A DNA stretch of 64,000 nucleotides, from the sequence record PQ301181; one strand, 5' to 3'. Position numbers and translations under genes: made by a program. Under the pieces are notes generated by a model. The model was not told where the DNA came from. It ran no database searches and saw nothing but the letters and a program-made list of their open reading frames with translations. Source of the DNA: Escherichia phage EP02SG. This document shows positions 2,488 to 56,336 of the stretch, piece by piece. The number at the start of each line of letters is the position of its first letter. Positions within the stretch are counted from its first letter, which is position 1.

Positions 2488-3058
2488 AAAAGTTTCGGAT
2501 TTGTTCCCAATTCAGAGAACGAAGATTATTACGAGAGTACTGAATTACTTCAATACCGGCTTGTTTTAGAATGTCTGCCCAATTTTCAGGAGATCGATCG
2601 TATAATTCTGCGTATACAACCTTTTTAATACCTGACTGCGTAATAGCTTTAGTGCAATCAGGACATGGAGAAAGCGTAGTATATAACGTAGCACCTTCAA
2701 TAGAATTACCTTTACGAGCTGCAAACAAAATTGCATTCAATTCTGCATGGATTTCATTATTAGCAGACCATGCACTATGAGCGGCCCGATGTTCTTTAGC
2801 CAAAACAAAATTATCTGCCCGTCCAAATGCTGTAGTGCCTTCTTTATGTCCAGCAACGATGACCGGGCTTGGTTTATTCTTCAACCAACCATTTTCGGAT
2901 GCATGTTCACAGCAGTTAACGCCACCTGCGGGTGAGCCATTATATCCAGTAGAGATAATGCGTCCATCTTTTTCAATGACGGCACCAACTTTCCATGAAC
3001 AACATTTTGATTCTTGAGAAATCAAATAAGCAATTTGAAGATATGTGCTAGCTTTCAT
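2477..3058 (-). CDS. cd: dCMP deaminase
   Basis: 193 aa (same as T4 Cd); cytidine/dCMP deaminase zinc motifs HAELNAI and SPCPDC. Confidence 0.9.
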   Translation of the reverse strand: MKASTYLQIAYLISQESKCCSWKVGAVIEKDGRIISTGYNGSPAGGVNCCEHASENGWLKNKPSPVIVAGHKEGTTAFGRADNFVLAKEHRAAHSAWSANNEIHAELNAILFAARKGNSIEGATLYTTLSPCPDCTKAITQSGIKKVVYAELYDRSPENWADILKQAGIEVIQYSRNNLRSLNWEQIRNFCGE

Positions 3059-4050
3059 TATTGAACCTTATTAATATAAGTTAACAGCTCTTTAGTTTGT
3101 TCCCAACTGATGCACGCATCGGTAACGGAAACGCCATAGGACATATTATCAGAAATTTTTTGATTTCCTTCATGTAGGAATGATTCTATCATAATTCCTT
3201 TGACTAAATCATTAGCTGCTAAATTTTTACCAATACCAATTTGATTGCTATAATACCCATCAGCGTTTGCATGGCTACAGTCAACCATTACATAATGATT
3301 CAGACCTAATGCACTTGCTTTGTTAGAAGCTTCTTGAATATCAGAAGAATGATAGTTCGGGCCGTTAGTCCCGCCACGCAATACGATATGCGTATTCTGA
3401 TTACCTTCAGCTTCAACAATGCCTACAGTACCATCGACGTCCATACCCATATACCGATGAGGCCAGGCGGCACTATACATCGCGTCTGTAGCTACTTTAA
3501 TAGAACCATTGGTTGCGTTCTTGAAGCCTACGCACATCGGTAGACCTGAAGCAATTTCACGATGTGTCTGACTTTCAGTCGTACGGGCGCCAATAGCAAC
3601 CCATGAGAAAATACCAGAAAGATACTTAATCGTGAATGGGTCTAATACTTCAGTTGCTAATGGAAGTCCCATACGTAGAAGTTTACGACACAATGTTCGT
3701 GCAACTATAAGACCGTGGTTCATATCAAAACTTCCGTCAAGATATGGATCATTTACAAGACCTTTCCAACCTACGGTAGTTCGAGGCTTTTCAAAATAAA
3801 CGCGCATCACTAACAGAACATTAGGAAGACGAGTTTGAAGTTCAGCCAGACGTTTGCCGTATTCAACAGCAGCAATAGGGTCATGAATTGAACAAGGACC
3901 TACAACAATAAGTTTGCGTGGGTCTTCACCGTTCATAATCGAATTAACTTGTTCGCGATGAGAAGCCACTTGTGATGCGTAAGCTTCCGACAAAGGAATA
4001 ATCTCAGCCAGTTCTTTTGGAGAAATAAGTTTTCTGATGACAGGTAACAT
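3058..4050 (-). CDS. 3-deoxy-D-arabino-heptulosonate-7-phosphate (DAHP) synthase, class I (AroG/AroF/AroH-like)
   Basis: 330 aa; long colinear matches to recalled E. coli AroG: GPCSIHDP, MRVYFEKPRTTVGWKGLVNDP, GARTTESQ, HIVLRGG, DCSHANA, ESFLHEGNQ; stop overlaps cd start. Confidence 0.85.
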   Translation of the reverse strand: MLPVIRKLISPKELAEIIPLSEAYASQVASHREQVNSIMNGEDPRKLIVVGPCSIHDPIAAVEYGKRLAELQTRLPNVLLVMRVYFEKPRTTVGWKGLVNDPYLDGSFDMNHGLIVARTLCRKLLRMGLPLATEVLDPFTIKYLSGIFSWVAIGARTTESQTHREIASGLPMCVGFKNATNGSIKVATDAMYSAAWPHRYMGMDVDGTVGIVEAEGNQNTHIVLRGGTNGPNYHSSDIQEASNKASALGLNHYVMVDCSHANADGYYSNQIGIGKNLAANDLVKGIMIESFLHEGNQKISDNMSYGVSVTDACISWEQTKELLTYINKVQ

Positions 4051-6234: not shown

Positions 6235-6533
6235 TATTTTATTCCTAAGAAAATTTCAAGAATACGAATGTTATGCTCGCGCCGGTCTTTATTAATTTCA
6301 GCAACGTTTTTATTAATTGACGTACTTCTAACGTTTGAAGAAATAAATTTAATCATATGACTTTTGAGTTGTTGCAAATCCAACCCTTTTTCTTTAGCAG
6401 CTTTACGAAGAGCTTTACCTGCTTCATCTAGTGCCTTTGCTGCATCTTTGTCATAATTGCCGAGTGACATTCCACGACAGATATCAATATACTCATCAGA
6501 CCGTTTGATGTAATTCTCTAGTAATGTTTTCAT
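6234..6533 (-). CDS. hypothetical protein (99 aa)
   Basis: ORF track; promoter-like element 6561-6591 upstream. Confidence 0.5.
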
Positions 6534-6560
6534 TTAGATTTCCTCAATTATCCATAGGAG

Positions 6561-6591
6561 CATTATACTCTGCTCCCGAGAGTTTGTAAAC
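6561..6591 (-). promoter_or_regulatory. T4-type early promoter
   Basis: cattatact ... tgtaaac; near-identical copy at 35634-35664. Confidence 0.5.
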
Positions 6592-6815
6592 TATTTTACT
6601 AAAGATTCAATATACTCATGAAGAGCTTTAGTAGCTACTGCCCACTTATTCTGATATTCATTTTTCAGATTAGCACGAGACTGAACTAACAAGCGGTCAT
6701 TAGTCGGAGGCAAAGATTCTAATCGTTGAATCTGTCGCCCGTAAATCATGGCCGCCATTTCAGATTCATAGATAAGCCCTTTAATGTATTCATGCTGTTC
6801 TTTAGTCATTGGCAT
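6591..6815 (-). CDS. hypothetical protein (74 aa)
   Basis: ORF track. Confidence 0.5.
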   Translation of the reverse strand: MPMTKEQHEYIKGLIYESEMAAMIYGRQIQRLESLPPTNDRLLVQSRANLKNEYQNKWAVATKALHEYIESLVK

Positions 6816-7096
6816 TTTTCCTCTTTTAAACCACTACGATAATAACATAACATAGTCTTCTGGTCATGTACATATCTTTTTACGTCGTTTAACCAGATAC
6901 GAAATTCTTGAGAGTCTTCAAACGGCATTCCAACCCATGGATTACCATCAATAACCTTTACTTGCCATTTCTGGTTATATTCAACAATAGATTCTGGCCA
7001 TGGCGGATGTAAAGTTTCTTTAGGGCTTAAGGGCACATCCTGGGCACATCCGGCTAAAATGCCAATAGATAATACAACTGCAGTTAATTTAATCAT
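6806..7096 (-). CDS. putative lipoprotein (96 aa)
   Basis: N-terminal signal peptide with lipobox-like LAGC. Confidence 0.5.
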   Translation of the reverse strand: MIKLTAVVLSIGILAGCAQDVPLSPKETLHPPWPESIVEYNQKWQVKVIDGNPWVGMPFEDSQEFRIWLNDVKRYVHDQKTMLCYYRSGLKEEKCQ

Positions 7097-9618: not shown

Positions 9619-10797
9619 TTAGAAATATTTTTTGTATGAATTGATTACATTTTGGTCTACATCATTATCAATTTGTGCGACAAGATAAGAACTGATTTCA
9701 ACTTCCTGAGGAGCTGCTTGAACTAAATCAGAGTTCAGATATTCACGAATCCAAGGATACGGATGCTTGGTCGGGGCATCGGTGATTGGGCATGGCAAAC
9801 CACACTGTTTCATACGAGACACAGTCAAGTAATCAACAAAAGCACACATACTCTGCGTATTGATACCTGGACATGTACCATCTTTAAAGAGGTGTGCAGC
9901 CCATTCCTTCTCTTGACTATTTACTTCCATAAAAATGTCAACTGCTTCTTGTTCACATTCTTTAGCAATTTGAACCCACTCATCACCATCAGTACCAGAT
10001 TGAAGTTGACGGATAATGTACTGAGTACCCTTGAGGTGGAGTTGTTCGTCACGAGCAATGAACTTCATAATCTTTGCATTACCTTCCATAATTTCCATAT
10101 TTTTGTGGAAGTTAAAGGTACATGCGAAAGATACGTAAAAACGAATAGCTTCCAAGGCGTTAATTACATGAAGGCAAAGATAAAGAGATTTCATTAGCTC
10201 ACGCTTCCAATATGTCTCATGCTCAATAGCATCTTCAATAACGTCTTCGTCTGCATTAATTTCTTTTTGGTATTCGATATCAGCTTTAGCGTTTTCCCAA
10301 TAACGAGTTTTAACCAGAACATCATCGTAATATTTACCTATTGATTCAGCTCGTTTCATGATTGCTTCGTCTAATACAATTTCATCAAATACCTTAGATG
10401 GATCAGTATAAAGATTTCGCATAATATGAGTATACGAACGAGAGTGAATAGTTTCACTGAATGTCCATGTTGCAACCCATGTATCTAATGAAGGGTCGGA
10501 AATCAGTGCCATAAGTACCGCAGATGGGGCCCTGCCTTGGATAGAATCTAATAATGATTGATACTTAAGATTGTTTGTAAAGATGTCCTGTTGGAACTGA
10601 GGAAGCTTATTGAACTGCGCAGAGTCCAACATCAAGTTTACCTCTTCTGGGCGCCAGAAAAATGATAATTGCTTTTCGGTCAAATCTTCAAAAACTTTAT
10701 GGCGTTGAATATCATAACGCGCAATACCAAGACCAGAACCAAAGAACATCGGTTCATTCAAAACATCGACTTGTTGTGTGTTAAAAACTGTAGACAT
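9619..10797 (-). CDS. nrdB: ribonucleotide reductase small subunit
   Basis: 392 aa continuous ORF (no intron), ferritin-like R2 fold, T4 gene order. Confidence 0.9.
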   Translation of the reverse strand: MSTVFNTQQVDVLNEPMFFGSGLGIARYDIQRHKVFEDLTEKQLSFFWRPEEVNLMLDSAQFNKLPQFQQDIFTNNLKYQSLLDSIQGRAPSAVLMALISDPSLDTWVATWTFSETIHSRSYTHIMRNLYTDPSKVFDEIVLDEAIMKRAESIGKYYDDVLVKTRYWENAKADIEYQKEINADEDVIEDAIEHETYWKRELMKSLYLCLHVINALEAIRFYVSFACTFNFHKNMEIMEGNAKIMKFIARDEQLHLKGTQYIIRQLQSGTDGDEWVQIAKECEQEAVDIFMEVNSQEKEWAAHLFKDGTCPGINTQSMCAFVDYLTVSRMKQCGLPCPITDAPTKHPYPWIREYLNSDLVQAAPQEVEISSYLVAQIDNDVDQNVINSYKKYF

Positions 10798-10832
10798 ATT
10801 ATTCTCGCTTATTATAGGTTTAAATTATTTAA

Positions 10833-11654
10833 TCACATATTATGTATAAGCACTTCAGTTTGAAATGATGCGCCCTTCTTTTGCTTCCTATACATGGTTT
10901 CAAAATATTCAATTTTAAAATTATTAGAAAGAGCCCAATCTTTTAAAATATAATTATTAATATCGTCTGATAGATTATTAGTGATAATAAATTTAGACTT
11001 TGATTGTTTAATTTTGTCTAATAATTCTAATTCATCCTTTTCTTCCCAGCCTGAATATTTAAATTTAGTAGAAAGATACGGCGGGTCAATGAATAAATTT
11101 TTGTTTTCAAAATCTAAATCTCTGAATGATTTATTACTAAATGTAAATCGGTGCTGTCTATTTTTAAATTCAGAAAATTTATCCTTCTGAGACTTATTAA
11201 AAGAAGTTCTGGAATACTTGGCTCTATTGGCGAAAGCCGCGTTATAGTTACCATTACTAGAAAATCGGATTAACGAACTGAATGAAAATAAATGTAGAAC
11301 ATAAAGATATAATCCGTTTTTGGTTTTATCGTATTCTTTTGAAAGATTATAAAAAGGTGCTGGATCTTTGTCATTCAAATTAAAGTCTTCAATAATTTGA
11401 ACTATATCATTAATTGAAGATGATTTCATCTTGTTATACATATCTATAAGAGGAGTATTAATATCATTACATATAACATCTCTCTGACAATTCATAGAAA
11501 ATCCAAGACCACCACAAAAAGCATCCAAAACAGGCTTATCGTCAAAGCGGTTTGAAAATTGTCTAATAAATGGCATATACTTATGTTTTGCACCTGGATA
11601 TGTTATGGCAGGTAGGTCTTTCATTTTATTTCTCGTTGTTAGTGACTCGTCCAT
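10833..11654 (-). CDS. dam: DNA N6-adenine methyltransferase, Dam family
   Basis: 273 aa; motifs DAFCGGLGFSMNC (AdoMet site) and LFIDPPYL (DPPY catalytic motif); resembles recalled T4 Dam; AT-rich relative to flanks. Confidence 0.8.
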   Translation of the reverse strand: MDESLTTRNKMKDLPAITYPGAKHKYMPFIRQFSNRFDDKPVLDAFCGGLGFSMNCQRDVICNDINTPLIDMYNKMKSSSINDIVQIIEDFNLNDKDPAPFYNLSKEYDKTKNGLYLYVLHLFSFSSLIRFSSNGNYNAAFANRAKYSRTSFNKSQKDKFSEFKNRQHRFTFSNKSFRDLDFENKNLFIDPPYLSTKFKYSGWEEKDELELLDKIKQSKSKFIITNNLSDDINNYILKDWALSNNFKIEYFETMYRKQKKGASFQTEVLIHNM

Positions 11655-11667
11655 GAGTCAAATTATA

Positions 11668-13923
11668 TCATAATTTACAGGATGAACAATCTTCAGCTTT
11701 AGGTGTTTCTAATTCATAGTCATCTGTACCTGACCCATCACGAGTGTTATGATAGTAGAGGTTTTTTCCGCCAAAGTACCAGAAGTAAAGCAGATCGTCA
11801 AGCATTACTGACATTGGTACTTTACCTTTCTCAAATACCGCAGGGTCATAGTAAGTATTAGCAGAAGCAGATTGGCACACCCATTTCAACATGATAGCAA
11901 CTTGGGTCAAATAAGGTTTATTACCTTTCTTAGCAAGTTTCCACGCGTAGTCGTAAAGACTCATGTTATGTTCTATATTAGGAACAACCTGACGGAAGTT
12001 GCCTTCTTTAGATTCTTTAATACTTACTGGACCGCGCGGTGGCTCAATCCCATTTGTAGAGTTCGATACTTGACTGCTTGACTCACAAGGCATGAGTGCA
12101 GACAACGTTGAGTTACGAATTCCATGTTCTTTGAGTTCAGCTCGAAGTTCTTCCCAGTCACAGACGTAGTTCGGGGCTGCGATTTGGTCAATCTTTTTAT
12201 TGTACCAGTCGATAGGTAATTCGCCTCTAGACCATTTAGTGTCTGAATAATACTCACAAGGCCCTTTTTCTTTGGCGAGCTTGATTGAAGCTTTGATAAG
12301 GCCATATTGCAATCTCTCAAACAATTCATGAGTCAAATCGTTAGCGTCTTCATATGAAGCAAAGTTAGAAGCTAACCATGCAGCATAGTTCGTAACACCA
12401 ACACCAAGATTACGACGCTTTTTAGCTTTTAAAGCTTCTGGAACCGGATAATCTTGATAGTCTAACAGGTTATCAAGTGCACGTACTTGTACTTCAGCAA
12501 GTTCATTAATTTTATCTTGGTCTTGCCAATCAAATTTATCTAATACAAAAGCAGATAATGTGCATAAACCAATTTCAGCATCAGGACCATTCACATCATT
12601 AGTCGGAATAGCGATTTCACAACATAAGTTACTCTGACGAATTGGAGCTTTTTCACGAATAAACGGAGTGTAGTTATTCGTGTTATCAACGAATTGTGGA
12701 TAAATTCGAGCAGTACCAGAACGTTCAGTCATGAACAATTCAAAGAGTTCTAGTGCTTTGATTCTTTTCTTTCTGATTGTCGGGTCTTTTTCAGCTTTCT
12801 CATAAAGCTCACGGAATTTATCTTGATCTTCAAAGAACGAGTAGTATAGTTCGCCTGACATTTCGTGAGGGCTAAATAAAGTAATATAATCATTTTTACC
12901 AAGGCGTTCCATCATAAGGTCATTAATCTGAATTCCGTAGTCCATATGTCGAATACGGTTTTCATCCACGCCTTTGTTATTTTTCAGAACTAATAGGTTC
13001 TCTACTTCTAAGTGCCACATCGGATAATACGCTGTAGCAGCACCACCACGAATACCACCTTGAGAACAAGATTTTACTGCGGTTTGGAAATGTTTCCAGA
13101 ATGGAATAACACCTGTATGTCGAACTTCACCCATACCGATCTTAGAACCTTCTGCACGAAGCATACCGACGTTGATACCGATACCAGCTCGTTTAGAAAT
13201 ATATTCAATAATTGATGCTGAAGTTTTGTTAATAGATTTTAACGAATCACCGGCTTCAATAACTACACAACTAGAGAACTGGCGAGTTGGAGTACGAGCA
13301 CCTGCCATAATTGGGGTAGGCAATGAAACTTGATGAGTAGAAACGGCATCATAAAAACGAATAATATGTTTCAAACGGTCATGAGTTTCGTCTTGATGTA
13401 AGGCCATACCAATAGCCATGATAGCAAACTGTGGAGTTTCATAAATCTTCCCAGTTGTTTTATCTTTAACTAGATATTTTTCTTTAAGCTGCATAGCACC
13501 AGCATAAGTCAGATCAAAGTCTCGTTCATGTTTAATCTGTGAATCGAGATAAATGATTTCTTCTGCTGAATATTGAGACAACAGCTCAGGGTCATATTTG
13601 CCTTCATTAACACAGTAAGAAATATGGTCGATAAAAGCAGGAGGTTCAAACTGTCCGTATACATCTTTACGAAGTGCAAACATTAGCCCTTTGGCGGCGA
13701 CATACTGATAATCAGGTTCTTCGACAGAAATCAAGTTAGCTGCAACTTTAATACAAATCTTCTGAATATCTTTGGTGCTCATCCCATCGACAAGATGGGT
13801 TTTAATTTCTTCGTACAATTCATATGGGTCAATTTGTGTTCCTTCACATTGCCAAGTTAAGACTTGAATAATTTTCTGTGCATCAAAATTTTGGGATACA
13901 CCACTACTCTTAGTTACTTGCAT
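11668..13923 (-). CDS. nrdA: ribonucleotide reductase large subunit
   Basis: 751 aa class Ia RNR R1 with ATP-cone N-terminus and C-terminal Cys pair (CSSCKL). Confidence 0.95.
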   Translation of the reverse strand: MQVTKSSGVSQNFDAQKIIQVLTWQCEGTQIDPYELYEEIKTHLVDGMSTKDIQKICIKVAANLISVEEPDYQYVAAKGLMFALRKDVYGQFEPPAFIDHISYCVNEGKYDPELLSQYSAEEIIYLDSQIKHERDFDLTYAGAMQLKEKYLVKDKTTGKIYETPQFAIMAIGMALHQDETHDRLKHIIRFYDAVSTHQVSLPTPIMAGARTPTRQFSSCVVIEAGDSLKSINKTSASIIEYISKRAGIGINVGMLRAEGSKIGMGEVRHTGVIPFWKHFQTAVKSCSQGGIRGGAATAYYPMWHLEVENLLVLKNNKGVDENRIRHMDYGIQINDLMMERLGKNDYITLFSPHEMSGELYYSFFEDQDKFRELYEKAEKDPTIRKKRIKALELFELFMTERSGTARIYPQFVDNTNNYTPFIREKAPIRQSNLCCEIAIPTNDVNGPDAEIGLCTLSAFVLDKFDWQDQDKINELAEVQVRALDNLLDYQDYPVPEALKAKKRRNLGVGVTNYAAWLASNFASYEDANDLTHELFERLQYGLIKASIKLAKEKGPCEYYSDTKWSRGELPIDWYNKKIDQIAAPNYVCDWEELRAELKEHGIRNSTLSALMPCESSSQVSNSTNGIEPPRGPVSIKESKEGNFRQVVPNIEHNMSLYDYAWKLAKKGNKPYLTQVAIMLKWVCQSASANTYYDPAVFEKGKVPMSVMLDDLLYFWYFGGKNLYYHNTRDGSGTDDYELETPKAEDCSSCKL

Positions 13924-14010
13924 ATATTCCTCAGTATAGGTTGATAGACATTACTCCAAACGGGATGGTATTTATCCCGTTAATTTATTATACACTTTTA
14001 AACTGAAGCG

Positions 14011-14265
14011 TTAATTATCCTCATCAATAATTTCTTCGTATTCTTTAGGTGTCAAGACTGTGATATCGAAATAAACCACCGGTTCTTTTTCTATACCGTA
14101 ACCACCACAAAATTCACGATATTCATAAATTCGTTCATGTGAATAGCAAATGAATCGTTCACCTTTAATTGTGATTTCACTATTCGGTGAAGGGATATCC
14201 AGTTCGGTAGGATTTTTCATTTCAAAAATTGTGGTGCCATATGAATTAATAAAACGTAAAATCAT
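14011..14265 (-). CDS. hypothetical protein (84 aa)
   Basis: ORF track; between td and nrdA. Confidence 0.5.
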   Translation of the reverse strand: MILRFINSYGTTIFEMKNPTELDIPSPNSEITIKGERFICYSHERIYEYREFCGGYGIEKEPVVYFDITVLTPKEYEEIIDEDN

Positions 14266-14266
14266 T

Positions 14267-15127
14267 TTATACCGCCATTTTAGCTTTGATAGCTGGATGT
14301 GATTCGTAATTTTTAAGAACGAAATCAGAATGTGTCATCGTTCCAGTAACCCAGTCCATTTGGATTTTTGTAGGCCAATTCTCAAAATTACTAGGCCAAT
14401 TAATTTCAAGAGAACATAACTCTTTAGGTTCACGACGAAGAACTTCTTTGCATTGTTCTACATGATTGCTGTAGATATGCGTGTTGCCGCCTGAGAACAC
14501 TAAATCACCTGGGATAAGGTTACACATCTTCGCTACAATATGCGTCAAGGCAGCGTACGAGGCAATGTTGAACGGCAGACCCAAGAAAACATCTACACTG
14601 CGTTGATACCATTGTAAATCAAGATGTCCATTACGCACGTTAAATTGATAGAACATATGACAAGGAGGAAGAGCCATTTGGTCAATTTCAGCCGGGTTCC
14701 ATGCAGAAACTATTTGACGACGATCATTAGGAAGAGCTTTAATACGGTCGATAGTTTTGACCAATTGGTCTACACCGCCGAAATCACGCCATTGCTTACC
14801 ATAAATAGGACCAAGTTCGCCGCTATGATATCCAAGGTCTTTTGCCTGATTTTCATAGTTGTCGTCCCAAATAGTTTTACCTTGAATAAGACTACCATGA
14901 GTACGAATACGCAAATCATTAACATTGGTAGAACCAGACATGAACCACAGTAACTCGGCAATACAAGCTTTCCATGCTAATTTCTTAGTTGTTACCGCAG
15001 GGAATCCTTTAGTCAGATCCCATCGCAATTTAGTTCCGAACAGGGCAATAGTGCCTGTACCTGTACGGTCGTCTGTTTCGTAGCCATTTTCTAAGATATC
15101 TTTAATCAGGTATTGGTATTGTTTCAT
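14267..15127 (-). CDS. td: thymidylate synthase
   Basis: 286 aa continuous (no intron); active-site LPPCHMFYQF. Confidence 0.95.
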   Translation of the reverse strand: MKQYQYLIKDILENGYETDDRTGTGTIALFGTKLRWDLTKGFPAVTTKKLAWKACIAELLWFMSGSTNVNDLRIRTHGSLIQGKTIWDDNYENQAKDLGYHSGELGPIYGKQWRDFGGVDQLVKTIDRIKALPNDRRQIVSAWNPAEIDQMALPPCHMFYQFNVRNGHLDLQWYQRSVDVFLGLPFNIASYAALTHIVAKMCNLIPGDLVFSGGNTHIYSNHVEQCKEVLRREPKELCSLEINWPSNFENWPTKIQMDWVTGTMTHSDFVLKNYESHPAIKAKMAV

Positions 15128-51982: not shown

Positions 51983-52016
51983 TATAATTTCCTCGATGGT
52001 TCACCCATATAAAGTT

Positions 52017-52277
52017 TTACAATACGTATGAATGATTATAATCGGAAGAGCTTGAAGCATTAACCTGTTTTGTTTTTGGATGAACAACTTCTTCCATCAT
52101 TCCGTCGCCGATATATTCCCAACTTTTTTCGTGTGTATCAGGAATAGGCACCATACCTTCGCCTGGTTTAACAGCAAACAACTTCTTCAGCATCGTAAGC
52201 ATTAATTGTTCCTCGAACAAAACGAACACCACCGTCATCCCAGCGGATTTCAGCATTAAATTTGACGTCTTCACCAT
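52017..52277 (-). CDS. hypothetical protein (86 aa)
   Basis: ORF track; overlaps next ORF in different frame, so one of the two may be spurious. Confidence 0.35.
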   Translation of the reverse strand: MVKTSNLMLKSAGMTVVFVLFEEQLMLTMLKKLFAVKPGEGMVPIPDTHEKSWEYIGDGMMEEVVHPKTKQVNASSSSDYNHSYVL

Positions 52278-52395
52278 CCATCATGAATGAGTGTACGACT
52301 ACATCATCATAATATCCAAGGCCGTATTTCAACGAAACTTCTTGAGCAATCAAAGCACCTAATGTGTTATTAGGTTTAATCCAACGATTTAACAT
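52168..52395 (-). CDS. hypothetical protein (about 75 aa)
   Basis: Track ORF 52168..52464 trimmed to ATG 52393-52395 with GAGGAGAA SD. Confidence 0.4.
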   Translation of the reverse strand: MLNRWIKPNNTLGALIAQEVSLKYGLGYYDDVVVHSFMMDGEDVKFNAEIRWDDGGVRFVRGTINAYDAEEVVCC

Positions 52396-52468
52396 ATTGT
52401 TCTCCTCTTGAGTAAGTAAGAATATCTTAACACAGTTTTTAGTGGTTGTAAACTGTAGAAACAAAAAA

Positions 52469-52488
52469 AGGAATCCCGAAGGATTCCT
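52469..52488 (-). terminator. stem-loop after soc
   Basis: aggaatcc cgaa ggattcct inverted repeat just after soc stop. Confidence 0.55.
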
Positions 52489-52496
52489 TAAATTAT

Positions 52497-52733
52497 TTAA
52501 CCGCTTACTGGTGTAGGGGTAAACATTGCAGCGTTCTTAGTTTTCCAATCAGCTGCATCAGAAACTACAGTAGAATATGCTGCCTTTTCTGACGGAAAGA
52601 TTTGATAATGAGAATCAGCAATCCGATGTTCGTTTGAATAAATCTCAAACGGCACAGAAACTTCCATACCTTTAACTTCTTTACCTTCACCAGCAGGATG
52701 CGTAAAGGTTTTGATGTTTACATAACCACCCAT
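52497..52733 (-). CDS. soc: small outer capsid protein Soc
   Basis: 78 aa; matches recalled T4 Soc (GYVNIKTF...YQ.FPSEKAAYSTV); late promoter TATAAATA at 52764-52771; hairpin downstream. Confidence 0.9.
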   Translation of the reverse strand: MGGYVNIKTFTHPAGEGKEVKGMEVSVPFEIYSNEHRIADSHYQIFPSEKAAYSTVVSDAADWKTKNAAMFTPTPVSG

Positions 52734-52735
52734 AA

Positions 52736-53056
52736 TTAACTCCTTTGTTGTTTAATTACAGGTGTATTTATAATGAATTTCTTCGGGACAATAAAATATC
52801 CGAATTTAGCTAATATAACAACATCACCGTTAATTATTACCGGAGAATAATCATCTGGAGTATTAAATTTCCAGTGGAGTCTAGTATTATATCCATCAGA
52901 GCCGAATGCTTTATTAGCCGGTCTCCCGGCTTTTTGCCATGCATAAAAATCAAGTTTCATTTGCAACCCAATCAACCATATGTAGATGGTCTGATAATTG
53001 ACTAACATGCTGAAGCTGATTAGATAGGAGCTTACAAATAAGCTCACTGTTATCAT
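52736..53056 (-). CDS. hypothetical protein (up to 106 aa; start uncertain)
   Basis: ORF track; hydrophobic N-terminal extension may not be translated. Confidence 0.4.
   Translation of the reverse strand: MITVSLFVSSYLISFSMLVNYQTIYIWLIGLQMKLDFYAWQKAGRPANKAFGSDGYNTRLHWKFNTPDDYSPVIINGDVVILAKFGYFIVPKKFIINTPVIKQQRS
52764..52771 (-). promoter_or_regulatory. late promoter TATAAATA for soc
   Basis: Exact TATAAATA on minus strand about 30 nt upstream of soc ATG. Confidence 0.55.
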
Positions 53057-53122
53057 TTTTAAATAGCTGGTCGATACGTTTCTTGTGGGCTTTCTTAAGC
53101 TGTCGTTTATTTAAACGAGCCA

Positions 53123-53644
53123 TTAGTAACCTCGGTCTTGGCGGGAGAAGTTTTCAGCATTCTTCAAGTAATACAGTTTAAAGATTTCTTCAGCGGAAAG
53201 TCCCAGACCTTGGAACATATTCAGAACAAAGTGGAGGATATCAATCATCTCGAATTTAATTTCAAGCTGGTCTTCAGGAGACAGTTCATCGATACGACGA
53301 TTTCGATATTCAGCATGTTGTGCTTTCCATGGCTTCCATACAGAGCTAGCGGCTTTTTCACCATTGCTCATACCACCAAGTGAAGTCAGCAGTTCACGGA
53401 ATTCATCATCAATATAATCTTTCTGATTACGCAGCCAATCAACAACATCGCCAGCAGTGGCTAATTCATCAGGATGTTTGTTATGTTCAGGCTTGTCATT
53501 TGCCAGACGAACCTGTAAAGATTTCTGCATATCAAGCATTACCTGCAGAGGGTCTTTATCTTCGTGAATCAGGGCATTAAAATAAGCTTCTTCTGCTTTA
53601 TCAACACCAGAAATAAGTTGTGAACATTCGTTAAAGTGCGCCAT
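53123..53644 (-). CDS. 56: dCTPase-dUTPase gp56
   Basis: Strong match to recalled T4 gp56 from MAHFNEC...; start at internal ATG rather than track start 53659. Confidence 0.9.
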   Translation of the reverse strand: MAHFNECSQLISGVDKAEEAYFNALIHEDKDPLQVMLDMQKSLQVRLANDKPEHNKHPDELATAGDVVDWLRNQKDYIDDEFRELLTSLGGMSNGEKAASSVWKPWKAQHAEYRNRRIDELSPEDQLEIKFEMIDILHFVLNMFQGLGLSAEEIFKLYYLKNAENFSRQDRGY

Positions 53645-53734
53645 TATTTTTCCTTTCAATTCAGTATAAGAGAAGTTAATTCTAACATTAATTTTATAAA
53701 GCGTAATAAATAATAAGGTAACTAAGGAGATATT

Positions 53735-53932
53735 ATGTTTAAACTTCCATCGTTAATCAACGCTATTAAAGGCAATAAAAAGAAAACTGCTATCGCTGCA
53801 ATAGTTGTAGGTGGCATTATTTCATGGAACTTCGGGATTGCACCATTGTTAGTTGCCCATGGTATTATAGTTCCTTCTGTTCCATTGGATACTGTAGTTG
53901 ACCTAGCCTTTGCTATTATAGGGCTTGTTTAA
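53735..53932 (+). CDS. small two-helix membrane protein (65 aa)
   Basis: Lone plus-strand ORF in a minus-strand block; AAGGAGA SD 7 nt upstream of ATG; two hydrophobic segments; convergent with gene 61 stop. Confidence 0.45.
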   Translation: MFKLPSLINAIKGNKKKTAIAAIVVGGIISWNFGIAPLLVAHGIIVPSVPLDTVVDLAFAIIGLV

Positions 53933-54951
53933 ATCTTCGAATAACGAGATAATCTCATTTTAGCATGCAACCCACTTGAAATATTCTGTTTCATATATTC
54001 TAAAATTTCTTGTGGTGTTGCATTTTCTTTCATTACCATATCATTCACATCCTTTGATCTCCATGGAGCTCGGTCCCAGAACATGACACGTTCGCCTGCA
54101 TCAACTAATCGCTTCATGCGAGCTATAGTATCCGGATGCCTAGGTTCATTATCCATTACCCATACCCGACGTTCTTTAAATGGTACCACATCTAAATCTA
54201 TTGAGCCGCCTGTAATAGCGATTGCATTGGGTATGAATAAACTATCAATAGGGCCTTCCATTACCCAGACGTCCCCTTCCTTAACACGTTCAACACCATA
54301 AATTTTTGTTGCAGACTCAAACGCTTTAATAGTGATATATTTCTGAGGAGCATCTTTACGAAGTGCACGTCCTTGGAATGACTCGGCCTTACCATCTTTA
54401 TTAAAAATAGGAATCACTAAACGTGGTTCGGGAATCTCTTTCTTATACGTACCAGGTTGAATCTTGTTGACCAATTTGGGCCATTCTAATGTGAACCATA
54501 ATCTGTTCCATGATTCTTTAGGAATACACCGAGACTTAACATATTTCACAATAGGATGCTCTTCAGGCAACTTGTCTAGACGAGAACAAGACGGCAAAGA
54601 ATTTATAGTCTTTTTCTCTGGCTCAGGCTTAGCTTCAGGAACCTTTTCAATCTTTGGTTCCATTCTAGCTTTTTCTTTACGAACTTCCATTAGATATTCG
54701 CGATAAAGCTCTTCATCATACTCTTTTAAGTATCCGGAAATTGTATTGTGGTATTGACAATTATAGCAATGTACATTACCAGGAGTACCGCCATAATACC
54801 ATCCACGAGCTTTCATTGCATCTGTCTGGGAGTCGCCACATACTGGACATCGAAATGTTAATTTAAATGTGCTTGAATTATTGATTTGTCTAAAACGAGG
54901 TAGGTGAGAAAACGCACGATAAGCAAATTCATTATCTATCCATTCAGCCAT
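53929..54951 (-). CDS. 61: DNA primase gp61
   Basis: 340 aa (T4 342); zinc ribbon CPVCGDS...CYNC then Toprim-like region. Confidence 0.9.
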   Translation of the reverse strand: MAEWIDNEFAYRAFSHLPRFRQINNSSTFKLTFRCPVCGDSQTDAMKARGWYYGGTPGNVHCYNCQYHNTISGYLKEYDEELYREYLMEVRKEKARMEPKIEKVPEAKPEPEKKTINSLPSCSRLDKLPEEHPIVKYVKSRCIPKESWNRLWFTLEWPKLVNKIQPGTYKKEIPEPRLVIPIFNKDGKAESFQGRALRKDAPQKYITIKAFESATKIYGVERVKEGDVWVMEGPIDSLFIPNAIAITGGSIDLDVVPFKERRVWVMDNEPRHPDTIARMKRLVDAGERVMFWDRAPWRSKDVNDMVMKENATPQEILEYMKQNISSGLHAKMRLSRYSKI

Positions 54952-54990
54952 AGTATTCTCCAGAGGCCTTAAATTAATAAGGCCATCATA

Positions 54991-55485
54991 TCACAACTTA
55001 TTAATATTTACTTTAATTCGCTTTCTTTTCTTGGAAGGAATTTGTTCTGGACCTTTATTTACGACTGCACCTGTAGTTGTTCCTGATGCAATAGCTTGAG
55101 GGCTGCCACCTGAATCACCAGCAACCATATCCTCAAATAAAGGGAGTTCTTTAAATATTTCTTTCTGTTGTTCTTCTGTAATGTTATAGCGGGATGCTAC
55201 AGCACTCCAGGCAGACATCATTGAGGCCATTCCATTAAGACCTGGAACAGTGCTCATCATTCGCTTCATTGAACGAACTGAAGCATGAAAAGGTGTATAA
55301 GCCGCTTTCTCTTCAGGAGTGGAAGGGCGTTTAAGAACACTTCCACGTTCATCGATGATTTTGGCTTCATACGCTTTCCATTCGGTAAAAGGTTTTTGCA
55401 TTAGTCGGATAAACTTATATGCGTAAACAGAATCTATTGCAGTGTTAATAATACCCATAGGTACCTCCTGAGTATATTTAATCAA
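54991..55485 (-). CDS. hypothetical protein (164 aa)
   Basis: ORF track; 61.x accessory region. Confidence 0.5.
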   Translation of the reverse strand: MIKYTQEVPMGIINTAIDSVYAYKFIRLMQKPFTEWKAYEAKIIDERGSVLKRPSTPEEKAAYTPFHASVRSMKRMMSTVPGLNGMASMMSAWSAVASRYNITEEQQKEIFKELPLFEDMVAGDSGGSPQAIASGTTTGAVVNKGPEQIPSKKRKRIKVNINKL

Positions 55486-55675
55486 TTACAAAGATTGCTT
55501 TGTCACCATTTATATCCGTGACTTCATATGTAGTGCCTTCATACTGTGGAATATTCCAAATTACACCATCATTAGCTTTTACGCTAATACGGCATTGGTG
55601 TTTTGAAACAACTTCATAATCTTCAAAACTTGTAAAAACACTAATTTTAGAACCAGTGCAAATTGCAGTAGTCAT
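55478..55675 (-). CDS. hypothetical protein (65 aa)
   Basis: ORF track. Confidence 0.45.
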   Translation of the reverse strand: MTTAICTGSKISVFTSFEDYEVVSKHQCRISVKANDGVIWNIPQYEGTTYEVTDINGDKAIFVID

Positions 55676-55676
55676 T

Positions 55677-56336
55677 TTAACCTCGATTCATAAATGCATT
55701 AAATATTTGGTCATCAACAGAAATTTCTAATTTGACTTCAATTGCTTCAGCCTTTTCTTCAGGTGGTAATTCGTATCCACACACTACAATTTTTTCATCG
55801 ATATCAAAATATACAGAAGCAATATGATTAATGTTATTTTCAGTTAAGTCTAAATCAACATCAACATCTTTTTGACCTACACTTAAAGGATAACTAATAC
55901 GGGTTATTTTATTATCTTTAACAAAGAGTCCACCGACATACTCTGTACTACGTTTGAAGTTTACACGTTTCCGAAATGAAAGATATGATGCATCTTTACC
56001 GTGAGCTCGGCTCATAGGACATAATGAATAGCTAGAATAAGAGATGTCAAATCCTACACCTTCAATATGAGCCAACGCGTCGTGATTAAACCAATTATAA
56101 TCATATGCCAAATCCATTATATTGTAATATGTGAAAGGCACCGGATTAACATCATACGTTGTACCTTTAAAATCTGCCCAGGCAACGATTTCGTTATCTT
56201 TAACAATTACAAAAATTACACCAATATGGTATCCGTTATTATTTTCATTCGGCGTTATATTATAACATTGTGCATTAGGAAATTTACCATATTTAAATGG
56301 CGCATTTTTGTGCATATAATAAATCATATTATTCAC
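55677..56336 (-). CDS. hypothetical protein (219 aa)
   Basis: ORF track; 61.x accessory region. Confidence 0.55.
   Translation of the reverse strand: MNNMIYYMHKNAPFKYGKFPNAQCYNITPNENNNGYHIGVIFVIVKDNEIVAWADFKGTTYDVNPVPFTYYNIMDLAYDYNWFNHDALAHIEGVGFDISYSSYSLCPMSRAHGKDASYLSFRKRVNFKRSTEYVGGLFVKDNKITRISYPLSVGQKDVDVDLDLTENNINHIASVYFDIDEKIVVCGYELPPEEKAEAIEVKLEISVDDQIFNAFMNRG

Follow-up and report, generated by a model that had tools for sequence, protein, structure and literature searches.

Escherichia phage EP02SG (sequence record PQ301181) carries, between nrdB and nrdA of an otherwise Mosigvirus-type nrd region, a gene for a predicted D12-class, T4Dam-like N6-adenine DNA methyltransferase; the 64,000-nt stretch of this genome that was analyzed is referred to below as the window. 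The explanation that we consider very probable as a whole is that of a functional orphan methyltransferase from an old clade resident in the nrdA-nrdB slot, which was gained from a Tequatrovirus-type phage by recombination. The region has the gene order of T-even phages, pseT-...-alc-rnlA-denA-nrdB-[ORF]-nrdA-td-frd, in which ORF denotes the open reading frame under study, and the relevant features are as follows.

9619..10797, minus strand: nrdB, 392 amino acids (aa), intact; Mosigvirus-type except for codon 2
10781..10792: left crossover block TTAAAAACTGTA, 12 nt, nrdB codons 2-6; identical in donor-type and recipient-type phages
10793..11683: minimal donor-derived (Tequatrovirus-type) tract, 891 nt, from the map of informative sites
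10798..10832, minus strand: spacer from the methyltransferase stop to the nrdB start, 35 nt; contains the nrdB ribosome-binding region (GAGAA) and is part of the cassette
10833..11624, minus strand: methyltransferase coding sequence from the conserved start, 263 aa plus stop; predicted D12/alpha-class N6-adenine DNA methyltransferase
10833..11654, minus strand: long ORF between nrdB and nrdA, 273 aa
11625..11654, minus strand: upstream in-frame extension of 10 codons (ATG at 11654-11652), not conserved
11625..11667, minus strand: spacer from the nrdA stop to the conserved methyltransferase start, 43 nt; holds the palindrome 11643-11660
11668..13923, minus strand: nrdA, 751 aa, intact; Mosigvirus-type except for the last five codons
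11684..11700: right crossover block GAACAATCTTCAGCTTT, 17 nt, nrdA codons -5 to -11; identical in donor-type and recipient-type phages

Acquisition of the cassette by a Mosigvirus

The window is of Mosigvirus type and shares 97 to 98% identity over 25 kb with phages such as ST0, HX01 and PNJ-6. Altogether, 138 records cover at least 80% of these 25 kb, and none of them contains the methyltransferase gene. For the nrd region alone, about 138 to 140 Mosigvirus records are 96 to 98% identical to the window and have an empty slot throughout, and the gene was not found in any other Mosigvirus record among the phage records searched. The cassette itself is 98.0% identical to that of Tequatrovirus T4_ev240, whereas its flanks show only 78.6 to 79.5% identity to this phage and 98% to the empty-slot Mosigviruses. 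In bins of 100 nt, the identity to an empty-slot Mosigvirus is 95 to 100% on either side of the gene, and that to T4_ev240 is 71 to 90% in nrdB and nrdA and 96 to 100% exactly over 10801-11700. The number of synonymous substitutions per synonymous site (dS) between the window and T4_ev240 amounts to 0.11 for the methyltransferase, 1.23 for nrdB and 1.90 for nrdA, and between the window and Mosigvirus 308Ecol101PP to 0.07 for nrdB and 0.11 for nrdA.

Both junctions could be located with informative sites. On the left side, Mosigvirus-type sites end at 10780 and donor-type sites begin at 10793-10794, and the crossover therefore lies inside the shared 12-mer; on the right side, the change from the last donor-type site (11683) to the first Mosigvirus-type site (11701) places it inside the shared 17-mer. 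The tract extends from codon 2 of nrdB across both spacers (35 and 43 nt) and the intervening methyltransferase gene to the nrdA stop and the five codons before it, and with a length of 891 to 920 nt it replaces a native spacer of 53 nt. It has left its mark on both neighbors: nrdB codon 2 is TCT instead of AGT, which encodes Ser either way, and the C terminus of NrdA reads CSSCKL in place of the CSACKL of Mosigvirus relatives (Ser748 for Ala). Over the 40 nt at 11661-11700, 385 records match the window with an identity of at least 99%, and the sampled rows of these are mostly T2/T4-like phages without an nrd-slot methyltransferase. The donor-type end of nrdA is identical to the one in T2-type Tequatroviruses; the donor backbone was therefore of Tequatrovirus type. 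As judged from these comparisons, EP02SG gained the cassette secondarily from a Tequatrovirus-type phage.

An ancestral arrangement, in which the gene had always occupied the slot of this lineage and the empty-slot relatives lost it by deletion, is highly improbable. The agreement of gene and nrd dS between T4_ev240 and CF-SP2 or fDHCT2 (see below) speaks for it insofar as the slot is an old home of the gene with frequent losses, but the low dS of the window gene to Tequatrovirus copies next to much more diverged flanks, the near identity of these flanks to empty-slot Mosigviruses and the Tequatrovirus-type codons at both nrd gene ends all stand against it. Close relatives that uniformly carry dam at this site, which the sequence-only reading of the window had named as the outcome that would contradict an insertion, were not encountered; the gene is present in 0 of the 138 to 140 close relatives. 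A chimeric contig assembled from a Mosigvirus and a co-occurring Tequatrovirus carrier would likewise weigh against an acquisition, and in its favor the donor tract begins and ends in sequence common to both phage types and the exact protein is absent from a large assembly collection. Such an artifact is nevertheless very unlikely, given that the shared blocks of 12 and 17 nt are shorter than usual assembly k-mers, that both joins preserve the reading frame, with nrdA, nrdB and the methyltransferase gene all intact, and that the cassette differs by about 2% from every known copy.

A larger exchange at the same locus was seen in phiC600P9 (L010, MZ681930.1; window 9700-14300). This phage is classed as a Tequatrovirus, and its nrdB-nrdA module is 97 to 99% identical to the Mosigvirus-type window, whereas the neighboring genes denA and rnlA are only about 69% identical; the contrast indicates that the whole nrdAB module was swapped between the genera.

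Identity, fold and selection of the enzyme

The gene product matches Pfam family PF02086 (D12-class N6-adenine methyltransferase) with an E value of 1.4e-23 and 84.4 bits (gathering cut-off, 22) over residues 19-255 of the 273-aa ORF, i.e., profile positions 1-251 of 253, and the PHROG family phrog_56 (DNA methyltransferase) with an E value of 5e-36. The best solved structure by sequence is T4 Dam (1yfj), which aligns end to end with about 33% identity (E value, 1e-36); the matches to E. coli Dam (EcoDam) and DpnM are far weaker (E values of about 2e-5). In the numbering of the 263-aa protein, motif I (FCGGLG) comprises residues 36-41 and motif IV (DPPY) residues 180-183, the domain order of motif I, recognition region and motif IV is that of the alpha class, and F36, G38 and DPPY are invariant in the aligned homologues. 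An AlphaFold model built on a 17-sequence alignment (predicted local distance difference test score, 87.6; predicted template modeling [TM] score, 0.87) retrieved T4Dam as the top match in the PDB (TM score of 0.84 to 0.85; root mean square deviation of 2.0 to 3.4), followed by EcoDam (TM score of 0.70 to 0.74) and DpnM (0.70). The latter two enzymes (PDB 2G1P and 2DPM) belong to the same D12 family and fold and share the Arg and the aromatic residue of the recognition hairpin, but they are only 15 to 19% identical to the nrd-slot enzyme in structural alignments.

Family matches and modeled fold thus identify the product as a D12-class, T4Dam-like N6-adenine DNA methyltransferase with intact motifs. 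The sequence-only reading had recognized a Dam-family adenine methyltransferase in the minus-strand ORF at 10833..11654 between nrdB and nrdA and had pointed to the motifs DAFCGGLGFSMNC and FIDPPYL, all of which are present at this place. Its comparison with T4 Dam stands as a statement about the closest relative in sequence and fold, but not as one about orthology, for which an identity of about 33% is too low.

The ratio of nonsynonymous to synonymous substitution rates (dN/dS) is 0.11 to 0.17 in comparison with the diverged copies of the phages BGP, CF-SP2 and fDHCT2 and 0.03 in comparison with the near-identical copy of T4_ev240, and the gene is thus under purifying selection; these ratios, together with the intact motifs, indirectly support the prediction that its product transfers methyl groups to the N6 position of adenine. 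The catalytic half of the protein (residues 136-263) has a dN/dS of 0.06 to 0.09 and the N-terminal or recognition half (residues 1-135) one of 0.14 to 0.25. Among the alleles, the recognition half hence changes two to three times faster than the catalytic half, and in conjunction with the exchange R120K described below, this may mark a drift in specificity. The neighbors of the gene are nrdA and nrdB in every copy, and the absence of an adjacent cognate restriction endonuclease gene characterizes the enzyme as an orphan methyltransferase and not as part of a restriction-modification system.

An old clade in the nrdA-nrdB slot

Close homologues were detected in 8 of 50,697 phage records:

T4_ev240, 236Ecol005PP, vB_Eco_NR1 and ECO07P2 (Tequatrovirus): 97-98% nucleotide identity, protein identity of 98.5-99.2%
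vB_Eco_BGP (Tequatrovirus): 81% nucleotide identity to the window gene
CF-SP2 (Gelderlandvirus): 79% nucleotide identity
fDHCT2 (unclassified): 78% nucleotide identity
PhiKpNIH-6 (Marfavirus): 74% nucleotide identity, protein identity of 75.5%, partial gene

The proteins of BGP, CF-SP2 and fDHCT2 are 78 to 80% identical to that of EP02SG. In all seven complete carriers, the gene is located between nrdA and nrdB, and in the eighth record (PhiKpNIH-6), it adjoins nrdA and is cut by the record start. The carriers have the slot, the length of 263 aa and the spacers of the gene in common with each other and with EP02SG, which differs from them in being a Mosigvirus and in the discordance between the gene and its flanks. 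Thirteen metagenome contigs, seven of which are shown in full, encode two members of the clade, again always between nrdA and nrdB. No relative was retrieved from IMG/VR, either with protein patterns or with a degenerate DNA pattern for FIDPPYLSTKFKYSGWEE, and no record of the exact 273-aa or 263-aa protein was found, a large assembly collection included. Among 1.84 billion cluster representatives, a single 50%-identity cluster was retrieved at an E value below 1e-30, and the next match had 34% identity and an E value of 2e-28; the clade corresponds to this one cluster, and everything else is 38% identical or less. On sequence grounds, the enzymes hence form a small, isolated T4Dam-like clade that occurs in the nrdA-nrdB slot only, in a small number of T-even phages belonging to several genera.

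Between T4_ev240 and CF-SP2 or fDHCT2, the dS of the methyltransferase gene is 1.10 or 1.29, respectively, and that of nrdB and nrdA ranges from 1.07 to 1.37. The gene has diverged in step with its nrd flanks across genera, which makes it a long-standing occupant of the slot with occasional swaps between lineages, and the pattern fits a long coresidence followed by loss from most lineages. The proposal of an insertion at an nrd hotspot accordingly needs to be divided: the slot is occupied in EP02SG and empty in its relatives, but the gene did not enter the T-even phages recently from elsewhere. The allele of BGP (L005, OZ035849.1, 4535-5326) is also discordant, with a dS to T4_ev240 of 0.81 for the methyltransferase and 0.19 for nrdA; by this measure, BGP represents a second allele swap, and a second Dam-family match elsewhere in its genome makes it the only carrier with two such genes. 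The occurrence of the gene in or beside one slot in eight GenBank records from four or more genera and in 13 metagenome contigs is sporadic and discordant with phylogeny, the picture of an accessory gene that keeps to a single address, has disappeared from most lineages and is exchanged now and then. In the GenBank entries of the carrier genomes, the gene is annotated as 'DNA adenine methylase', and no paper discussing an nrd-slot methyltransferase was found in the literature. What is already known is thus the annotation of the gene in a few genomes; what is new is its presence in a Mosigvirus and the resolution of the junctions to the base pair, not a new kind of system.

Relation to T4-type dam and the 56-61 interval

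T4 and T2 carry dam between genes 56 and 61, with the order 56-dam-61 in the T2 reference, and the sequence-only reading was right in contrasting this position with the nrd operon. In the window, this part of the genome is composed as follows.

53126..53644: gene 56
53645..53928: 56-61 interval, 284 nt, no methyltransferase
53735..53932, plus strand: 65-aa hydrophobic, membrane-like ORF, the last 4 nt of which overlap the gene 61 stop
53929..54951: gene 61

The interval contains, as had been stated, only this small plus-strand ORF, and a tblastn search of the window with T2 Dam, gp56 and gp61 detected neither dam between 56 and 61 nor any other Dam-family sequence. The same dam-less arrangement is found in 148 records that are colinear over 52000-56000 with 96 to 98% identity, and the empty interval is consequently the norm for Mosigviruses and not the result of a relocation. 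T4_ev240 also lacks dam at 56-61 and has a 41-aa plus-strand ORF at that place.

That the nrd-slot gene is T4 dam itself, moved from the 56-61 interval into the nrd operon, is extremely unlikely. A relocation would be in keeping with T4 Dam as the closest solved structure, with the lack of dam at 56-61 in the window and with the single Dam-family match in six of the seven complete carriers; the identity to T4/T2 Dam is, however, only about 33% (33 to 34% over 67 to 68% of the query in tblastn searches against T-even dam), the clade is a separate 50%-identity cluster with a gap to 38% or less, and the interval is normally empty in this genus. In addition, BGP contains two Dam-family matches, the second of which is reported as a T4-like Dam gene, and the T4-type Dam gene occurs in only part of the Tequatroviruses, e.g., BGP, Geo and EL (PMC13390438). 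Since BGP has both genes, the nrd-slot gene is not a relocated dam and is best regarded, from its divergence, as a distant paralogue of T4 dam. Fold, alpha-class motif order, the motifs FCGGL(G/S) and DPPY and the status of a phage orphan enzyme are shared with T4/T2 Dam (M.EcoT4Dam; PDB 1Q0S, 1YFJ, 1YF3 and 1YFL), as are the residues aligned to the EcoDam contacts K9, Y119, R124 and Y138. The nrd-slot enzyme is set apart from T4/T2 Dam by its location at nrdA-nrdB instead of 56-61, by Ala where the hairpin has Pro, by six residues inserted after R134 and by a shortened loop following DPPY.

The six carriers with one match suggested that the nrd-slot gene and canonical dam might exclude each other, but this idea was rejected: four of these six are near-identical, which deprives the pattern of statistical weight.

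Target specificity

The residues with which EcoDam reads GATC are K9, Y119, N120, L122, R124, P134 and Y138 (roles from PMC4417163). R124, Y119, L122 and P134 were mapped by direct alignment with EcoDam and K9 and Y138 by way of the T4Dam alignment, with the following equivalents in the nrd-slot enzyme.

EcoDam R124 (primary Gua contact): R120, conserved
EcoDam Y119 (intercalating aromatic): F115, conserved
EcoDam L122: L118, conserved
EcoDam P134: A130, Pro to Ala
EcoDam K9 (first base pair): K13, conserved
EcoDam Y138 (first base pair): R134, conserved as in T4Dam

The position of the EcoDam Asn (N120) is occupied by S116. The enzyme probably recognizes GATC or a site close to it. Several observations weigh against a conventional Dam activity, namely, the Ala at the position of EcoDam P134 (inferred T4Dam P126), the 6-residue insertion and the shortened loop mentioned above, and the replacement of the key Arg R120 by Lys in the alleles of BGP, CF-SP2 and fDHCT2, all of which imply that the target may differ from GATC. 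To these are added the score for the NCBIfam model TIGR00571 (Dam), which at 93.9 bits remains below the cut-off of 114.85, the rarity of GATC in EP02SG, which would leave a GATC enzyme few targets, and a literature search that found no methylation data for EP02SG or any carrier. The score of 33.9 bits for NF008152 does not reach the cut-off of 441 either. In view of the subcut-off TIGR00571 score and the residue differences, the enzyme is filed here as D12/T4Dam-like, with a GATC specificity that is likely rather than proven.

It is conceivable, if somewhat unlikely, that the enzyme is active on a noncanonical target, such as a relaxed GAT-type or another site, and serves a distinct modification function instead of substituting for Dam. 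The score below the Dam subfamily cut-off, the insertion and the deletion would be explained in this way, and the Pro-to-Ala exchange affects a residue that contacts the inner base pairs in EcoDam (PMC4417163). The faster evolution of the recognition half, the R120K alleles, the retention of both Dam-family enzymes in BGP and the scarcity of GATC sites point in the same direction. The residues for the primary Gua contact and the intercalating aromatic and the N-terminal Lys and Arg equivalents for the first base pair are all conserved, however, and the top structural matches, T4Dam, EcoDam and DpnM, are GATC enzymes without exception.

Base composition and GATC frequency

The methyltransferase insert has a GC content of 28.3%, in contrast to 37.9% for nrdB and 38.6% for nrdA, and a GC content at third codon positions of 0.23, compared to 0.29 to 0.35 in the seven other genes for which it was computed; the impression that the insert is AT-richer than the nrd flanks was therefore correct. 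It includes the 800-nt stretch with the lowest GC content of the 64 kb (minimum, 0.278; mean, 0.375; standard deviation, 0.023) and is the only part in which the 800-nt GC content is at or below 0.30.

GATC occurs 52 times in the window, whereas 212 sites are expected from a second-order Markov model; the observed-to-expected ratio of 0.24 corresponds to an approximately fourfold depletion, which is present in all 8-kb bins, while GTAC and most other 4-mer palindromes have ratios near 1. Ratios of 0.06 to 0.39 were obtained for most T-even loci examined (L001-L007 and L009-L017), including T2 with its dam gene, and a ratio of 0.76 was obtained for PhiKpNIH-6. GATC scarcity was tried as a clue to the role of the enzyme and dismissed: T-even loci show this depletion whether or not they have a Dam gene, and the GATC frequency therefore does not discriminate.

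Route of transfer

The nrdA-nrdB interval is also the site of the homing endonuclease genes mobE and hef, both of which cleave nrdB, and trans-homing has been documented at this slot, with mobE acting for the I-TevIII intron (PMC2988022); the description of the interval as a hotspot of mobile insertions is borne out by these occupants (PMC2988022). The methyltransferase gene resembles mobE and hef in its slot, its sporadic, phylogeny-discordant distribution and its co-orientation with the nrd genes. It differs from them in that they encode nucleases driving their own spread, whereas the EP02SG cassette contains a methyltransferase only and no self-mobilizing function. No nuclease family matched in the donor tract, the methyltransferase is the sole ORF of its 891 nt, and no homing endonuclease gene was found in the nrd region of the window. 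Because the cargo lacks a nuclease, the simplest route is homologous recombination in a mixed infection. During coinfection with a Tequatrovirus-type carrier, homologous recombination or gene conversion would have proceeded through crossovers in the 12-nt block at the nrdB start and the 17-nt block at the nrdA end and would have exchanged the 53-nt native spacer for a cassette of about 0.9 kb, leaving both nrd genes intact.

One aspect fits less well with such a route. The two crossovers are no more than about 20 nt away from the heterology. Such proximity is not expected of simple random crossing-over in 1.2 kb and 2.3 kb of homology and hints at a break-initiated event or later trimming. In a homing-like process, a break in or near the 53-nt spacer of the recipient, made by a homing endonuclease in trans or another nuclease, would have been repaired from a coinfecting carrier, with the methyltransferase gene as a hitchhiker. 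The position of the crossovers in the first conserved blocks beside the heterology, with very short co-conversion tracts, would agree with this course of events, as would the neighborhood of mobE, hef and I-TevIII, for which trans-homing is documented (PMC2988022), and the endonuclease genes near the cassette in some carriers:

236Ecol005PP (L004), 6350-7060: endonuclease gene splitting nrdA
BGP (L005), 2870-3679: nrdB intron endonuclease
L016, 2929-3657: GIY-YIG gene between td and nrdA

We nevertheless regard break-driven transfer as unlikely. Neither the cassette nor the nrd region of the window contains a nuclease gene, mobE and hef are described as cutting nrdB, with no spacer-cutting nuclease documented (PMC2988022), and short tracts could equally result from repeated back-crossing or from selection against chimeric NrdA and NrdB proteins. 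More far-reaching and quite improbable is the combination of these ideas with a non-Dam target, according to which the gene is a nuclease-less cargo with a fixed address that spreads between T-even genera by trans-homing and whose recognition half is diversifying. If this were true, the gene would be distributed patchily because protection from restriction is traded off against the triggering of methylation-sensing defenses such as retrons.

Gene start and surrounding sequence

The long ORF begins at an ATG at 11654 that is due to a nonconserved G/A polymorphism; the corresponding codon is ACG in T4_ev240, 236Ecol005PP and CF-SP2 and lies out of frame in BGP. The Met matching 11624 is the start in every homologue and results in a length of 263 aa in all copies, and the gene therefore comprises 10833..11624. 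The 10-codon extension is probably not translated as part of the enzyme. The start at 11654 assumed previously has to be replaced by that at 11624, and the spacers given as 14 and 36 nt measure 13 and 35 nt for the long ORF. The 35-nt spacer is kept in all carriers and is unlike the sequence of the empty site.

Just downstream of the nrdA stop, the palindrome TGACTC-GTCCAT-GAGTCA (11643-11660) precedes the methyltransferase gene. Its core is kept in all carriers, and in empty-slot phages, it is present as ACTCATCCATGAGT. An RNA hairpin at this position was considered and rejected, as the minimum-energy fold bypasses the palindrome and the folding is no better than that of shuffled sequences (z score, -0.53). 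A promoter scan of 10600-12000 yielded 11 promoter-like sites, with 7.0 +/- 2.4 expected, and a terminator scan of the same interval found none; upstream of nrdB, inspection by eye revealed no convincing MotA box or -10 pair.

Expression, role and implications

The gene is co-oriented with the nrd operon and has a purine-rich GAGAAA a few nucleotides upstream of its conserved start, from which it would be translated by means of its own ribosome-binding site. Its transcription probably starts at promoters upstream of nrdA, in analogy to mobE, for which the nrdA promoters drive expression from this slot (PMC2988022). During infection, the enzyme would use S-adenosylmethionine to methylate adenine in phage DNA, probably at GATC-like sites. 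A general role of orphan methyltransferases in phages is to protect from adenine-sensitive restriction (PMC12707154), which would also be the putative benefit in EP02SG. Conversely, methylation-sensing retrons can be triggered (PMC12548924), and such triggering is a possible cost that could help to explain the patchy distribution of the gene.

The nrd region of EP02SG exemplifies a clean, nucleotide-resolved exchange of a cassette between genera of T-even phages, with a Tequatrovirus-type donor and a Mosigvirus recipient, at a known homing endonuclease site and without a nuclease in the cargo. It also defines a small T4Dam-like clade, the target of which is easy to determine. The acquisition would provide a genus that is normally devoid of Dam-family enzymes with the capacity for adenine methylation. 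By inference, it could alter the sensitivity of the phage to restriction and to methylation-triggered defenses, which bears on host range and on the choice of phages for therapy.

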